Shown: piece by piece, positions 5,973-22,883 of the stretch
Layout of the letters: each line of letters starts with the position of its first letter
Numbering within the stretch: position 1 is the stretch's first letter
NCBI GenBank assembly: GCA_951812855.1
Contig: CATOSW010000002.1
Coordinates: forward strand, 1 to 22,883
DNA length: 22,883 bases
From: an uncultured Lentisphaeria bacterium
GTDB taxonomy: Bacteria; Verrucomicrobiota; Lentisphaeria; JABSQK01; JAJFLO01
Reading direction: 5' to 3'
Program-made: the position numbers and the translations under genes
Notes under the pieces: generated by a model
What the model saw: the letters and a program-made list of their open reading frames with translations, nothing else
The model's database searches: none
What the model was told of the DNA's origin: nothing

Positions 5973-6566
5973 TTATTGCCATAATGATCGACTTGTTTGT
6001 GTGAAAAGATCTTGTCTTTTTAACTCTGCTCCTAACTCATGAGTTAAAACTATAGCTCCTATCATTGCTACTAATAATATAAAGCTTGCTATGATAAATA
6101 AATAATAATAATCTGTGTATAAAATTCGCCCTAAGACTTCTATATTTGAGGATTTTATTATTTCTATAGAGGCATCTCATGCGTCAACTCCTCCTTTTAA
6201 GCATTCGTGATCTATGTCTCGATAATTATATGCAGTGGCTTCTCTTCCCATAATTAAAACTTCAAATAATAAAAGAACTCCTATTCCAGAGCCAATTGGA
6301 ATATAATTTGACATATCCCCGCCCCCCTCAAGGTCAGTAAGATTTAGCATCATAATTACAAACAAAAATAATATCGCAATTGCTCCCACATAAACGATTA
6401 AAAATATTAATGCTATAAAGTCAATACCTAATAAAATAAATAGGGCTGAAGCGCCCAAAAATACTACTATTAACCAAAACACTGAATGTATTGGATTAAG
6501 TGCTGAGATTACCATTATCCCAGATATTATAACACCTAATGCAAATATATAAAATAACCCTTCCAC
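5973..6566 (-). CDS. nad6: NADH dehydrogenase subunit 6 (GTG start inferred)
   Basis: The frame of ORF 6177..6689 continues through TGA=Trp to TAA (5975-5973). The ORF's upstream part overlaps trnE and trnH. The first plausible start is GTG at 6566-6564, 2 nt after the trnE 3' end. 197 aa. Confidence 0.85.
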
Positions 6567-8755: not shown

Positions 8756-8828
8756 AGCCTTTAGTAGGAATTGAACCCACACTATTTTACTTACAAGGTA
8801 AATGCTCTACCAATTGAGCTATAAAGGC
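8756..8828 (-). tRNA. trnT: tRNA-Thr (anticodon UGU), copy 1
   Basis: Reverse complement: acceptor gccttta/taaaggc, D-arm gctc-aattggta-gagc, anticodon stem tttac/gtaaa, loop cttgtaa, T-arm gtggg-ttcaatt-cctac. Confidence 0.92.
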
Positions 8829-10105
<1,277 letters not shown>

Positions 10106-10149
10106 TTGGTAATATTGGAATTGAACCAATACAATTAACCCCGTTACCA
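10106..10149 (-). ncRNA. Truncated tRNA-like element (T-arm plus acceptor helix only) abutting the rns 5' end
   Basis: Reverse complement: tggtaac-ggggttaattgt-attgg-ttcaatt-ccaat-attacca-a. The T-arm is perfect and the acceptor helix has 6 bp, but there are no D or anticodon arms. An alternative 5' strand ggcaata (to 10166) would overlap trnF by 4 nt. Too short for a cloverleaf in the 57 nt available. Confidence 0.45.
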
Positions 10150-12029: not shown

Positions 12030-12230
12030 TTATAGTTGTAACAACTTTTTGATAAGTTGTGGGTCTGTCGTTTTTCTTAAAACCTTAGAACTAAGGGGTG
12101 TTGATCTTATCTTCAAAATCTTTTCAATTTGAGGTAATATTTTTGTTACTAGTAAAGAAAATAAGATGAATAAAGCTATTAATGTTCAAGTATACTGCGT
12201 TAAAAAGGTTACTGTATCTAATTGTGGCAT
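12030..12230 (-). CDS. atp8: ATP synthase F0 subunit 8
   Basis: ATG at 12230-12228. The N-terminus MPQLDTVTFLTQYTW is the canonical atp8 signature. TAA at 12032-12030, 1 nt before the atp6 ATG. 66 aa. Confidence 0.88.
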
Positions 12231-12233
12231 TTA

Positions 12234-12305
12234 TAGGTGTTGAAAGGATCGAACTTCCGACCATTGTGGTGTAAACACAACACTCTACCGCTGAGTTAAA
12301 CTCCT
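12234..12305 (-). tRNA. trnV: tRNA-Val (anticodon UAC), minus-strand copy
   Basis: The reverse complement matches the plus copy at 16322..16393 at 70 of 72 positions. Anticodon loop tttacac. Acceptor aggagtt/aacacct has an A:A mismatch at 4:69. Confidence 0.88.
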
Positions 12306-12355
12306 AATTTCTCCACATAATCAATATATTTCATACCTTGTAAATAATTGTTATT

Positions 12356-12428
12356 AGCCTTTAGTAGGAATTGAACCCACACTATTTTACTTACAAGGTA
12401 AATGCTCTACCAATTAAGCTATAAAGGC
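12356..12428 (-). tRNA. trnT: tRNA-Thr (anticodon UGU), copy 2
   Basis: Identical to 8756..8828 except A12416 versus G8816, which changes a D-stem C:G pair to U:G. The offset is exactly 3,600 bp. Confidence 0.9.
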
Positions 12429-12437
12429 TTGATATCA

Positions 12438-16308: not shown

Positions 16309-16321
16309 TGTGCAAGAAATT

Positions 16322-16393
16322 AGGTGTTTAACTCAGTGGTAGAGTGTTGTGTTTACACCACAATGGTCGGAAGTTCGATCCTTTCAACACCTA
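16322..16393 (+). tRNA. trnV: tRNA-Val (anticodon UAC), plus-strand copy
   Basis: Acceptor aggtgtt/aacacct (perfect), D-arm actc-agtggta-gagt, anticodon stem ttgtg/cacaa, loop tttacac, T-arm ggaag-ttcgatc-ctttc. Confidence 0.93.
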
Positions 16394-18897
16394 TAAAAGT
16401 TAGTATTAACGAGTAACGAATGGATGACTAGGTTGTTCCAAATGGACGTAAAAAAAAACGAAATGTCGACTATAAGAAATTGTGAATGTCGAATATCCAC
16501 ACGGGAAACCAATAAAAAGTAACCCTGGGAACTGAAACATCTTAGTACCAGGAGGAAAAGAAATCAAGCGAGATTCCGTAAGTAGCGGCGAGCGAAAGCG
16601 GATTTTTAGATAGATCAAAATCCAAAGAGGGTATGAGTCCCGTAGATCTATCCTAAAGTCTTTATAGTAGAACTATTTGAAGATAGGTGAATCACACATC
16701 TAAGACTAAATATTGGAACAATCCGATAGTGAACAAGTACTGTGAAGGAAAGTTGAAAGAGAGTAAATATCCTAAAGCCCTAGAGGTAAATGGATATGAA
16801 GTGAAACAGAGCCTGAAATTCGTTAACTTACAAGCAGTGTGTAAACACGTACCTTTTGTATAATGGGTTCGCGAGAATAAGATTTGGCAAACTTAAGTTG
16901 ATAAACGAAGGTGTAGCGAAAGCAAGTTTTAATAGAGCGAAACATTTCAGTCAAATTTAACCCGAAACCAAGTGATCTAGTCATGGACAGTTTGAAGCTA
17001 ATTTAACAGTTAGTGAAGGAACGAACCGGTGATTGTAGCAAAAATCTCGGATGATCTGTGACTAGCAGTGAAATGCTAATCGAACTTGGAAATAGCTGGT
17101 TTTCTGCGAAATCTATATAAGTAGAGCATCATACATTATTCTTACATTGTAAAGCACTAGATGGTGTTGGAGGCACTAAGCCGGCCACATCAACTAAACT
17201 CTGAATGTGGAAGAATTTAAGTATGGTAGACAGACAATAGGCGACCAGGTCTATTGTCGAGAGGGGAACAGCCCAGATCAGAAGTTAAGGTCACGAAAAA
17301 ACTCTAAGTGTAAAAGGGAATCTATCAATTAAGACAATGAGGAAGTAGGCTTGGAGCCAGCCATCTTTGTAAGATTACGTAACAGTTCACTCAATGAATT
17401 TATAGATCCCAAAAATTAAGGTGGCTTAAGTTTTAACCGAAACTCTGAATAATGTATATGGTAGCAGAACGTACTGTATAAAACTAGCGAAAGCGTGTAT
17501 CAGTAGTGATAATGCGAACATGAGTAAAAAACAGTGTGAGAAACACTGATCACCGCCTAAGGGTTCCAATTAAAGGGTAATCCTAATTGGGTTAGACAGC
17601 CCCTAAGAGACACTGCCAAAGCAAATTCTTAATGGGTTATCCAATAATCTACGCTCTAATGGGCCAAGAAATAATTATTGGATGAGGACTGTACTATAAA
17701 CTGACTCAAGTGGGCGTAAAGTGATGGTAAAATTTATCTTAAGGAACTCGGCAAAATAACCCCGTAAGTTCGCAAGAAGGGGTACCAACTTAATCCCGTA
17801 ATCAATCGTGGATTAAATGGTCGCAGAAAAGAGGGAGTGCCGACTGTTTACCAAAAACACAGCTTCCAGCAAATATTAGAAATAGTAGTATTGGAGGTGA
17901 GGCCTGCCCAATGATTGTATCCAAAACCAAGTGGTGATTAAGCTATTTGGATAAGGACAATTAAATGGCCGCGGTAAAACTGACCGTGATAATGTAGCGC
18001 AATCAATAGCCAATTAATTGTTGGCAAGTATGAATGGCGTAACGAGTGCTCCACTGTCTCAAGATAAAAACCAATGAAATTGAATTCGTAGTGAAGATGC
18101 TACGTACAAATTGTTAGACGAGAAGACCCCATTGAGCTTTACTGGAAACTTATACTGTTCACATCAAATTAATTGTATTATTGGTGGGAAGAGTGTATAA
18201 ACATTCTAAAACCACTCTTTAATTTTGAGGGGGACTTAGACGGCAAAACCGACGAAACGTGTAAGTCAGACAGTTTGGTTGGGGCGACCGCCTTCTAAAA
18301 AGTAACGAAGGCGTACACAGGGTAAAGATATAATAGTATAAAGCCTGACTGTAAAGATGACAATCTGAGCAGGGCCTATATGGGCGGTTATAATGACCCG
18401 TTAATATAGAGTGAAATAGTTAACGATCAACGGATAAAAGTTACCATGGGGATAACAGCGTAATATCGTTCAAGAGTTCATATCGACGACGATGTTTGCG
18501 ACCTCGATGTTGAATTGCGGTATCCTGGAGGTGCAGCCGTTTCCAAGGGTTGGACTGTTCGTCCATTAAAACCGTACATGATTTGAGTTCAGTGCATCGT
18601 GAGATAGCACGGTTTCTATCTACAATTTGTAAAGGAAACATTATATATATTATCTTCTAGTACGAAAGGACCGAAGGATAATCGTCCACTGGTGTACCAA
18701 TTGTAATTACATGTTGGGTAGCTACGACGAAAAGTATAATCGCTGAATGCATCTAAAGCGAGAAGACTAATATAATTTTTTGTTTCCGTCGTTTAACGAC
18801 TCAGGGCCGTTCAAGATAAGGACGTTAATAGGATCTGTGTGTGAGCTACGGCAACGTAGTCCGCTTAAGATTACTAATGCCCGGCATACTGATTTTT
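16394..18897 (+). rRNA. rnl: Large-subunit (16S/23S-like) ribosomal RNA; ends approximate
   Basis: Conserved LSU blocks are present: gggaactgaaacatcttagtaccaggaggaaaagaaatcaagcgagattccgtaagtagcggcgagcgaaa (5' domain), gacggaaagaccc-like gacgagaagaccccattgagctttactg, the peptidyl-transferase region ggataacagcgtaatatcg...cgatgtttgcgacctcgatgttgaattg, and a 3' end ...gattactaatgcccgg. Confidence 0.92.
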
Positions 18898-18903
18898 TCA
18901 AGC

Positions 18904-18924
18904 CCGTCCGCTTGCCGCGGGCGG
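18904..18924 (+). other. GC-rich stem-loop between the rnl 3' end and tatC
   Basis: ccgtccgc (18904-18911) pairs with gcgggcgg (18917-18924), 8 bp including one G:U. Loop ttgcc. Confidence 0.7.
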
Positions 18925-18939
18925 AAGTTTTAAGATAGT

Positions 18940-19668
18940 TTGACTAGACATTTAAATGAATTAAAGTTAAGAGGAATTTATTTAATTTTAGGTTTTATAA
19001 TAACAATAGTTATAGGTTATAATTATTGTGAAGAAATAATATTTTTAGTTTTTTATTTAAATTCTATGAATGATGAAATTCAATTAAAACTAATTTTGAC
19101 CAATGTATATGAAGGGTTATTTTCTTATTTATTAATCTCTTGTGGTCTTGCTTTTTTTGTAATGATACCTATAATTATTTTTCAATTAATTTTATTTATA
19201 GCTCCTGGTTATCATTACTATGAGTATAGAGTATTATTAAAATCTTTTTTATTGTGTATTATAACTTATTTATTAACTATTTACATTGGATATAGCTGAA
19301 TTAATCCGGTAATATTAAAATTTGTGGGAGGGTTCTCTTCTACTTATCCCCCCATAGAAGTTAATATTAAAGCGAGTGAGTTATCTAATTATTTAATAAA
19401 ATTAACTGGCTTAATCGTATGTATGGGTATTATAATAACTTTATTATGATTTGCTCCTTCTTTTATGCCCTCACGTTTTATAATTAAACACTGATGGATA
19501 AGACCTACAATAATTATAGCAAGTCTGATGATAGGAGCCATTTTATCTCCATCGGATATAATCATTCAATGTTTAATCGCTGCACCTATTTATTGTTTTT
19601 TTGAAATCTGACTATTTTTATTTTTATTGAAAGACCAGTATAATAAAAGGAATAACCCCACTAAATAA
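18940..19668 (+). CDS. tatC: Twin-arginine translocase subunit C (TatC/MttB) homologue, non-ATG (TTG) start inferred
   Basis: ORF 18940..19299 continues through four TGA=Trp codons to TAA (19666-19668). 242 aa and polytopic. The N-terminus HLNELKLRGIY resembles the bacterial TatC HLxELRxRL motif. The C-terminal ILSPSDIIIQCLIAAPIYCFFEI resembles the LTPPDVxSQ...P...FE motif. TAA at 18931 lies upstream in frame, and the first in-frame ATG is about 42 codons downstream. Confidence 0.85.
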
Positions 19669-19671
19669 ATT

Positions 19672-19742
19672 TGGGAGTTAGCTTAATGGTAAAGCATTGG
19701 ACCTTGGACCCGACAATGTGGGTTCGATTCCCACACTCCTAT
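19672..19742 (+). tRNA. trnQ: tRNA-Gln (anticodon UUG)
   Basis: Acceptor tgggagt/actccta, D-arm gctt-aatggta-aagc, anticodon loop ccttgga (stem ttgga/cccga with one A:C mismatch), T-arm gtggg-ttcgatt-cccac. Confidence 0.82.
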
Positions 19743-19828: not shown

Positions 19829-19899
19829 AGGAGATTCGGTTAATGGTAGGCCAGTAGCCTTCAAAGTTATTAGCATTGGTTCGATTCCAGTATCTCCTG
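19829..19899 (+). tRNA. trnW: tRNA-Trp (anticodon UCA, decodes UGA and UGG)
   Basis: Acceptor aggagat/atctcct, anticodon stem gtagc/gttat, loop cttcaaa, T-arm attgg-ttcgatt-ccagt. Confidence 0.9.
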
Positions 19900-20250: not shown

Positions 20251-20262
20251 ATTACAAGACTA

Positions 20263-20333
20263 GCACGCATAGTTTAACGGTAAAATGGTTGACTTCCAAT
20301 CAGCGGTTGTGGGTTCAATTCCCACTGTGTGTA
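20263..20333 (+). tRNA. trnG: tRNA-Gly (UCC); same locus as 3..73
   Basis: Identical to 3..73 (offset 20,260). Confidence 0.9.
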
Positions 20334-20353
20334 ACAAGTAATTTAATCCTTCA

Positions 20354-20424
20354 TGTAGAGTAGACTAATGGTTGGTCACTAGACTCATGATCTAGGTATG
20401 TAGGTTCGATTCCTACCTCTGCTT
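20354..20424 (+). tRNA. tRNA with CAU anticodon; same locus as 94..164
   Basis: Identical to 94..164 (offset 20,260). Confidence 0.85.
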
Positions 20425-20478
20425 TAACCCCACTCCTGTAATAATTTTAGGAGTGTTGAGTTTAAAGACAATAAAGAA

Positions 20479-21876
20479 ATGTATGAAGCTTTTTATCCAG
20501 AATTATTTCTAAGTCTAGCAGTGTTGGTCCTGGTTATCTATGGAGTTTATCAGCCAACATTAAAAACAGCAATAATAATTTTGTTGGTTACAGGATTAAT
20601 GGCCCTCCCTAACGAACAGTTTTTATTTTGAGAAGATAAGACGCTTGATCTAACAAACGGGCTTTTGACAATTAATAGTTGAATATCTATTACAAAATTA
20701 ATTATTATAGTAGGGTCTATTTCTATATTATTAATGTTGAAAGACACCAAAATTTCGGGACAAGCATCATTTGATTCCCCCGTTTTAATTTTAATTGTAA
20801 CATTGGGATCTGTGCTTTTAGTTTCATCAATTAATTGACTTTCTGTTTATTTGGCCATTGAATTACAAACTTTATCCTTATTTGTTTTAACCGCATTAAA
20901 AAGAGATAGTGCATACGGCGCTGAAGCCGGGCTTAAATATTTTGTCTTAGGGGCGTTATCATCCGGCCTATTTTTATTTGGATGTGCTTTACTTTATGGT
21001 TTAACCGGTGAAACAAGCGTACATGCTGGTGGACAAATATGTGCTCTTACATCAAATGGTGAGGTAGGAAAAATTCTTATAACAATTTCGTTATTATTTA
21101 AACTATCTGCTGCGCCATTCCATATGTGAGCCCCCGATGTATATGAGGGAGCACCAACAACAACAACCGCACTATTGGCTATAGTGCCAAAAGTTAGTGT
21201 GTTTGCTATTTTAGTTCAAATAGGACCAGTAGTTAATGTATTATTAGCAAGTGCAATACTATCTATGATATATGGAGCTATAGGGGCCTTAAATCAAACT
21301 AAAATTAAACGACTATTAGCATATAGTGGTATTGGTCACATGGGGTTTGTTCTTTTTGGTGTAACAATTGGTTCATTTGAAAGTATTCAAGCAAGCTTAA
21401 TATATATGATTATATATGTTATAATGTCTATATGTAGTTTTTCAATAATACTAACATTAGGATTATCTAAAAACTTAATAGTGGAGTTTAGCGGCCTTTC
21501 TAGGAGACATCCTGTTATGGCAGTAACCCTAGCTTTTACTTTTCTGTCTACAGCCGGAATCCCACCTTTAGCAGGGTTTTTTAGTAAGTGGTTAGTGTTA
21601 TTATGTGGAATATCCTCTCAATATTATTTAACTTCAATCATAGCCGTGCTTTGCTCCGTTATAGCGGGGGTATATTATGTAAGAATAGTAAAAATAATTT
21701 ACTTTCAAGCAGAATCTTCTCTTTTAATTTGAAAAGATGTACTTACAGGAGATAAAAGAGGAGAATTCAGAAGATCAATATTAATCGGATTATCACTATA
21801 TATAATACTATTCATAATGATATCTCCAAACCTGTTATTACAAATAGCACATGATGCTACGATGGGGCTATATTAA
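20479..21876 (+). CDS. nad2: NADH dehydrogenase subunit 2; same locus as 219..1616
   Basis: Identical to 219..1616 (offset 20,260). Confidence 0.93.
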
Positions 21877-21977
21877 TAATCTGTAAGGATAGTGTTGTTA
21901 TAAAAATATTAACCCGCCGCAGTGGCGGGTAACAACACGCCTTTGTATCAATAAAATTTTTGGTGAGAGAAAAAGAG

Positions 21978-22883
21978 ATGTATCTATTAGTATTATTTAT
22001 ACCATTATTAAGTGCTGCAATATCTGGTTTATTCGGAAGAAAAATTGGTGAAAAAGGTGCAGGTATTTTTACTTCAAGTAGTATAGTAATATCTTGAGTG
22101 TTATCAATGTTAATATTTTATGAAACAAATATTAATGCCTCTTCCACATATATAAAATTATGAAGATGATTCGATTCAGATTTATTAACTATTTATTTTG
22201 GCCTACAATTTGACGCCTTAACAGGCATAATGCTAGTTGTTGTTACTAGTGTTTCAGCCTTAGTTCATATTTATTCAACTGGCTACATGTCAGGAGATCC
22301 ACATATACCCAGATTTATGTCATATTTATCCTTATTTACTTTTTTTATGATTGTTTTAGTAACAAGTGATAATTATGTTCAATTATTTATAGGTTGAGAA
22401 GGTGTTGGTTTATGTTCTTATTTATTAATAAATTTTTGACTTACAAGAATCCAAGCTAATAAAGCAGCTATAAAAGCCATGTTGGTAAACAGAGTCGGAG
22501 ATATTGGATTAGTTTTGGGTATGTTTGCTATATTTAAAGAATTCGGAAGCTTAGAATTTTCAACAGTATTTAGTACGGTGAATGAAGTATCTCAACCTAA
22601 TAGCATAGCTTTAATATGTATATTATTACTTATTGGGGCAGTGGGTAAATCTGCTCAACTAGGTCTACATACTTGACTTCCAGATGCTATGGAAGGTCCA
22701 ACGCCTGTGTCGGCATTAATTCATGCTGCCACAATGGTTACAGCCGGGGTTTTTCTAATAATACGGTCTGGGCCTCTTTTCGAGGGTTCTCCTTTAGCAT
22801 TAACTGTTACAACAGTTGTAGGAGCCTTAACAGCCTTTTTTGCTGCCACGGTTGGATTAGTACAAAATGACTTAAAGAAAGTT
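21978..22883 (+). CDS. nad5: NADH dehydrogenase subunit 5, 5' part truncated by the window end; same locus as 1718..
   Basis: Identical to 1718..2623 (offset 20,260). Confidence 0.93.

Follow-up and report, generated by a model that had tools for sequence, protein, structure and literature searches.

Mitochondrial tatC genes, encoding the TatC subunit of twin-arginine translocation (Tat) systems, have been known in homoscleromorph sponges since the gene was first reported in the mitochondrial DNA (mtDNA) of Oscarella (Wang & Lavrov, 2007). It is found throughout Oscarellidae, is lacking in Plakinidae (PMC3001884), forms part of the genus diagnosis, and is covered both in reviews and in a dedicated analysis (Pett & Lavrov, 2013). 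It also serves as a phylogenetic and barcoding marker, and O. lobularis sequences have been deposited, including the complete mtDNA HQ269361 (PMC3667853; bioRxiv 2024.10.26.620226). Beyond the sponges, the closest described proteins are bacterial TatC, with chains solved from Escherichia coli (E. coli; 9dzz/9e01) and Aquifex aeolicus (4b4a), and two kinds of mitochondrial system in which TatC is encoded in mtDNA and TatA is not: the TatBC of plant mitochondria, where OrfX/MttB works with a nuclear-encoded TatB, and the TatC-only systems of protists such as Naegleria and Malawimonas. Oscarella itself has been classed as a TatC-only lineage (Petru et al., 2018). The subject here is the tatC open reading frame (ORF) in a stretch of 22,883 nucleotides (nts) from contig CATOSW010000002.1, hereafter the window. 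The position of this ORF, its 242 codons, and its setting between rnl and a tRNA cluster are all as the first-pass annotation of the window had described them (Table 1).

The ORF is very probably the known mitochondrial tatC of Oscarella lobularis, and the window its mtDNA. Its product is identical to O. lobularis AGC78750.1 and AGC78752.1 except at the initiator, given as Met in the database entries and as Leu in a literal reading of TTG. Identity is 99% to the O. tuberculata protein and 75–88% to those of O. viridis, O. kamchatkensis, O. pearsei, O. balibaloi, and Pseudocorticium jarrei. The likeness extends to the genome at large. With the described mtDNAs of O. lobularis and O. tuberculata (AGC78750.1, YP_004123638.1; HQ269361; Gazave et al., 2010, 2013), the window shares a TatC of 242 amino acids (aa), a genome length of 20,260 bp, 27 tRNAs, and a tatC flanked by rnl and the tRNA cluster. 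There is no difference of substance from O. lobularis mtDNA, the window being a redundant linear read-out of the circle: bases 1–2623 recur exactly at offset 20,260 (as 20261–22883), which yields a 20,260-bp circular mitochondrial genome with a terminal redundancy of 2,623 bp, so that trnG, trnM, nad4, and the beginning of nad5 are present twice. An independent ENA assembly holds a 20,260-bp contig whose 6.7-kb stretch around tatC is identical to the window. The marks of Oscarellidae-type mtDNA are all present, namely tatC, 27 tRNA genes, and a duplicated trnV(uac), as described for the family (PMC3001884), together with two gene blocks of opposite polarity. The oscarellid origin that had been suggested from the letters alone is thus borne out, and tatC, put forward as the strongest taxonomic marker in the window, proves an excellent one that leads to the correct naming as O. 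lobularis. The gene, its TTG start, and its restriction among animals to oscarellids have all been in the literature since 2007–2008, and nothing in this is new.

Two in-frame, clade-specific indels separate the TatC of the O. lobularis/O. tuberculata clade from that of other Oscarellidae. Seven residues (x-I-Q-E-F-E-x) are missing from the first intermembrane-space loop (~19068, between residues 43 and 44), and a further four near the C-terminus (~19650), which is shorter.

Intact and full-length, the ORF belongs to the TatC family and is, judged by its sequence, almost certainly a functional tatC. Its product matches the Pfam TatC profile (PF00902) with 85.8 bits (gathering cutoff 25.1; E = 4.5e-24), residues 4–216 falling on profile positions 2–208 of 208, and NCBIfam TIGR00945 with 98.6 bits over positions 1–215 of 215. 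The solved E. coli and Aquifex chains align with it end to end (E ~3e-13). Hydropathy delineates six hydrophobic segments, the number of transmembrane helices (TMs) that the first-pass annotation had expected of a topology prediction, and the profile match over the full PF00902 model is the strong hit that it had anticipated. Lysines and arginines in the loops number 11 on the predicted matrix side versus 3 on the intermembrane side, and both termini are accordingly predicted to face the matrix (N-in/C-in), as in bacterial TatC. An AlphaFold2 (AF2) model computed from a 24-sequence alignment is all-helical with the expected helix pattern, at low confidence (pLDDT 63, pTM 0.41). The N- and C-terminal motifs by which the gene had originally been recognised are both present, HLNELKLRG at residues 4–12 and SPSDIIIQCLIAAPIYCFFE at residues 203–222; the dot spacing in which the second had been written was wrong by one or two residues. 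At the TM5/6 junction, the S203-P204-S205-D206 turn and Q210 correspond to E. coli T208, P209, P210, D211, and Q215. The window protein thus resembles bacterial TatC in six-TM architecture, length class, and end-to-end alignment, while its identity to the bacterial proteins is ~20–29% and the N-terminal tail before the conserved His is trimmed to three residues.

What this protein has kept at the level of single residues was assessed against roles drawn from a 2026 cryo-electron microscopy study of E. coli TatBC (PMC13323110), mapped via alignments with the E. coli and Aquifex chains and the 24-sequence set. In E. coli, H12, E15, F94, Y100, and E103 contact the signal peptide, while M205, T208, and Q215 form the site at which the TatA or TatB helix docks; in the TatBC–substrate structure it is the His and Glu of the N-terminal motif that contact the twin-arginine (RR) signal peptide (PMC13323110). 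Four of the five recognition residues are retained in the window protein: H12 as H4, E15 as E7, F94 as F86, and E103 as E95. The first three of these are invariant in all 24 aligned sequences. At the docking site two of the three persist, Q215 as the invariant Q210 and T208 as S203, a conservative change that keeps the hydroxyl, while M205 has become A200; the cluster as it stands is compatible with the docking of a partner. D206, the equivalent of E. coli D211, is kept as well. The kept signal-binding site and most of the docking site argue that the protein may still recognise an RR-type signal and contact a TatA/B-like helix.

Such a helix would have to come from elsewhere, since tatC is the sole Tat component of the mtDNA. 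The genome's 15 protein genes, 2 rRNAs, and 27 tRNAs have all been placed, no spacer exceeds ~100 nts, and neither tatA nor tatB is among the genes. A TatA/TatB profile, built from four textbook sequences, was run with filters off against all six-frame ORFs of at least 30 aa and returned a best score of 7 bits versus 54.6 bits for a spiked control. The claim that no tatA or tatB partner is encoded here therefore holds on both counts. An apparent gap of 156 nts at 12077–12232, considered as a tatA site, turned out to be atp8 (MPQLD...), and a regular expression for the TatA hinge motif matched only inside nad5 and atp6.

In the canonical mechanism, TatC would be made on mitochondrial ribosomes, inserted into the inner membrane, and serve there, within a reduced Tat pathway, as the subunit for signal recognition and docking. 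Its likeliest cargo would be the Rieske protein (complex III), whose folded Fe-S domain would pass from the matrix to the intermembrane space. Export of this domain by plant TatBC is the only demonstrated function of a mitochondrial Tat system, and Pett and Lavrov (2013) are cited as having proposed Rieske export for Oscarella. For the oscarellid protein, a receptor of this kind exporting Rieske is a tentative reading, held at somewhat less than even confidence.

A number of observations weigh against it, beginning with the protein itself. The fifth recognition residue, Y100 of E. coli, is not conserved and is H92 in the window protein. At E95 (19222–19224), O. pearsei (sequence P0005) has Ser where the remaining Oscarellidae and the bacterial homologues have Glu; the E. 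coli counterpart E103 forms the salt bridge with the second arginine of the signal peptide. A more pervasive change lies in TM4 (19414–19428, residues 159–163), where an F-E-x-P motif invariant in 17 bacterial homologues reads (V/A/T)-(C/S)-x-G in all seven Oscarellidae and in the window, the Glu giving way to Cys or Ser and the Pro to Gly. The lost residue is the conserved intramembrane Glu of TM4, E170 in E. coli and E165 in Aquifex. No mention of its family-wide loss was found in the papers that were read. The score against TIGR00945, moreover, falls below the equivalog cutoff of 132.7 bits, a shortfall attributed to a divergent, AT-biased mitochondrial sequence being measured against a threshold set with bacterial proteins. 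Homology is firm, but the profile does not vouch for functional equivalence. A Foldseek search of the AF2 model against the PDB gave three matches, all of them TatC chains and none significant (E 0.09–1.3), and with the model itself weak, the family call relies on the sequence-profile evidence. Other points come from the wider system. A TatA/B partner is neither encoded in the mtDNA nor reported for sponges, and no tatA or tatB adjoins tatC. E. coli was not complemented by the TatC-only proteins of protists, nor does the RR motif of Rieske follow the presence of Tat (Petru et al., 2018). Finally, Bcs1 is reported to move Rieske in yeast and perhaps other opisthokonts, as well as in eukaryotes without Tat at large, and a Tat route might therefore be redundant.

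Several of these points can be accommodated by a TatC that has been repurposed to function without TatA or TatB, for instance as a membrane scaffold or as an assembly factor for a respiratory complex. The absence of tatA and tatB from the mtDNA is what such a role would lead one to expect, as are the failed complementation by TatC-only proteins of other eukaryotes, those of Naegleria forming stable high-molecular-weight complexes, the loss of the TM4 Glu-x-Pro in all Oscarellidae, and a substitution rate in tatC above that of other mitochondrial genes. Yet H4, E7, F86, and E95, along with Q210 and S203, are kept across Oscarellidae, a pattern hard to explain if signal binding and docking had been abandoned. 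We regard this alternative as possible, with odds short of even.

Whichever role it serves, tatC is under purifying selection, about three to four times more relaxed than that on nad4 and nad5. The comparison was made between the window and a Logan-assembled relative (L001; ~83% amino-acid and ~86% nucleotide identity). It gave dN 0.101, dS 0.460, and dN/dS 0.22 for tatC, against 0.016, 0.262, and 0.062 for nad4 and 0.019, 0.320, and 0.058 for nad5, which makes tatC the fastest-evolving of the three. This agrees with published rates, synonymous and non-synonymous, both of which are highest in tatC among oscarellid mitochondrial genes (PMC5593202), and with the tatC of O. carmela (Wang & Lavrov, 2007), likewise the fastest-evolving mitochondrial gene. 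The differences between window and relative fall 28/21/57 on the first, second, and third codon positions, every gap (24 columns in all) has a length divisible by three, and 134 of the 242 residues are invariant among seven Oscarellidae. A pseudogene or nonfunctional remnant that happens to be still open might be suspected from a pace of change above that of any other mitochondrial gene (dN 0.10 versus ~0.017; PMC5593202), from the want of an ATG start, and from the missing partner gene. Such decay is already contradicted by the dN/dS value and the predominance of third-position differences, and is made very improbable by an ORF that stays intact in at least eight species-level lineages with in-frame indels only, by catalytic and recognition residues invariant across the family, and by the maintained TTG. 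The ratio lies well away from the value near 1 that, like frame-disrupting differences in a close relative, had been named beforehand as evidence against a functional gene, and no such differences were found.

The start codon of this functional tatC is well supported as the TTG at 18940, the sole workable start and one that has already been published. In O. carmela, tatC starts with TTG, nad6 with GTG, and the remaining genes with ATG (PMC2444032 Table S2; Wang & Lavrov, 2008); in the running text of the same paper the tatC start appears as "TGG", evidently a typographical error, as Table S2 and the references cited there show TTG. The window genome repeats the pattern. Thirteen genes have a plausible ATG, nad6 needs GTG, as it does in O. 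carmela and most demosponges (PMC2444032), and tatC alone needs TTG. The need for TTG had been predicted from the upstream in-frame TAA and the late first ATG, which is codon 43 (Met43); the TTG and the TAA are both kept in the relative L001 at ~86% nucleotide identity, and the published annotation concurs. That translation might instead begin at Met43 or at some other noncanonical codon, the former giving a shorter protein of five TMs, could be argued from the fact that no other gene of the genome uses TTG and that table 4 nominally admits TTA (codon 5) and ATT (codon 13) as starts. A start at Met43, however, would remove TM1 and the H-L-x-E-L-K-x-R motif (residues 4–11), which holds the RR-binding His and Glu and is invariant in the 24 aligned sponge and bacterial sequences; residues 4–41 as a whole are nearly invariant within Oscarellidae. 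Taken with the conserved TTG and TAA, this renders downstream initiation highly improbable. For codons 2–41 alone dN/dS is 0.40, a value derived from only three synonymous and five non-synonymous differences, too few to carry weight, so that the case for translation of this segment rests on amino-acid conservation.

Just upstream, the 42-nt spacer between rnl and tatC contains a GC-rich hairpin (Table 1). It is kept in L001 (343–362), where one G.U pair has become G-C through a U-to-C change, and it may be a transcript-processing or mRNA 5′-end element. No family of similar hairpins emerged from the 25 longest short-range inverted repeats of the genome, which are almost all AT-rich palindromes.

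The surrounding genome is 65% A+T, and its 20,260-bp unit carries 15 protein genes, 2 rRNAs, and 27 distinct tRNA genes, with the protein genes in two blocks of opposite polarity, one on the plus and one on the minus strand. The tatC stop is followed after a 3-nt spacer by trnQ, which opens a cluster continuing with trnN, W, M, I, Y, L, G, and M. Three tRNAs with a CAU anticodon occur in the unit. The duplicated trnV marks a published inversion site in O. pearsei. The 66-aa atp8 is too short for ORF listings that begin at 70 aa. Within tatC, five in-frame TGA codons are read as Trp under genetic code 4, a reading for which the genome supplies trnW(uca); the bacterial code would break the ORF at 119 aa. 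Shortened copies of this TatC of exactly 119 aa stand in public databases (P0030, P0031), apparently called with TGA as a stop. Although TatC proteins of bacterial type are the nearest relatives outside the sponges and sponges are rich in symbionts, the notion of a symbiont tatC mis-joined to mtDNA is already refuted by the five TGA codons that the ORF needs as Trp, by its close abutment on rnl and trnQ (42 and 3 nts) in the same arrangement in independent assemblies and a second species, and by a best non-sponge match of 78 bits versus 513 bits within Oscarellidae.

Table 1. Features of the tatC locus and of the mitochondrial genome around it, in window coordinates
Feature	Position	Strand	Details
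tatC coding sequence	18940..19668	+	242 sense codons plus TAA stop, genetic code 4
TTG initiation codon	18940..18942	+	Sole ATG/GTG/TTG between the upstream TAA and codon 43
In-frame TAA	18931..18933	+	Third codon upstream of TTG, only GAT and AGT between
TM1	18976..19044	+	Residues 13–35; hydropathy, charge, AF2 helix 2–28, alignment to E. coli H12/E15; preceded by matrix-side H4-L5-x-E7-L8-K9-x-R11
TM2	19114..19203	+	Residues 59–88; hydropathy, AF2, charge, alignment; contains F86 (E. coli F94)
TM3	19234..19293	+	Residues 99–118; hydropathy, AF2, charge, alignment; matrix loop before it carries E95 (E. coli E103)
TM4	19384..19455	+	Residues 149–172; hydropathy, AF2, charge, alignment; F-E-x-P replaced by V-C-M-G (C161, G163)
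TM5	19507..19545	+	Residues 190–202; hydropathy, AF2, charge; short helix
TM6	19558..19629	+	Residues 207–230; hydropathy, AF2, charge, alignment
tatC stop TAA	19666..19668	+	Three nts before trnQ
GC-rich 8-bp hairpin	18904..18924	+	CCGUCCGC-uugcc-GCGGGCGG; in the 42-nt rnl–tatC spacer; fold computed
rnl	16397..18897	+	Rfam LSU_rRNA_bacteria, 1518 bits, full model; upstream neighbour of tatC
trnQ(uug)	19672..19742	+	First of the nine-tRNA cluster 3′ of tatC
trnW(uca)	19829–19899		Anticodon UCA reads TGA as Trp; ARAGORN label "SeC (tca)"
trnV(uac), copy 1	12233–12306	−	Opposite strand to copy 2
trnV(uac), copy 2	16321–16394	+	Opposite strand to copy 1
trnT(ugu), copy 1	8756–8828	−	
trnT(ugu), copy 2	12355–12429	−	
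rns	8823–10111	−	Bacterial-type rRNA
nad6 start GTG	6564–6566	−	Directly after trnE; only other non-ATG start
atp8	12030–12230	−	66 aa, MPQLDTVTF...; between trnV and atp6

As to where the gene came from, an exhaustive profile search of 1.84 billion representative proteins placed the oscarellid cluster at 513 bits and the next match at 78 bits, the nearest named relative being an Anaplasmataceae TatC. By these sequence comparisons, the oscarellid TatC clade is an isolated one. They accord with the alpha-proteobacterial/mitochondrial ancestry given in the literature; they do not separate vertical inheritance from transfer out of the mtDNA of another eukaryote, since a shared AT-rich composition may also lie behind the similarity, and the literature likewise leaves a vertical or lateral origin of oscarellid tatC undecided.

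The significance of tatC, recognised since 2007, is that in mitochondrial gene content it alone distinguishes oscarellids from all other animals. The gene bears on the gene content of the ancestral animal mtDNA and on the loss of bacterial export machines from mitochondria. The residual scientific interest lies in the part that a TatC lacking a known TatA/B partner plays in an animal mitochondrion. Its fullest form would be a working Tat export, with the mtDNA-encoded TatC, its RR-binding site and docking Gln/Ser kept, joined, as in plants, by a putative nuclear TatA/TatB-type protein and moving the folded Rieske Fe-S domain or another cofactor protein over the inner membrane, beside or instead of Bcs1. 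This we consider rather unlikely; if true, the family-wide loss of the TM4 Glu-x-Pro would mark a mechanistic adaptation of the oscarellid Tat pathway.

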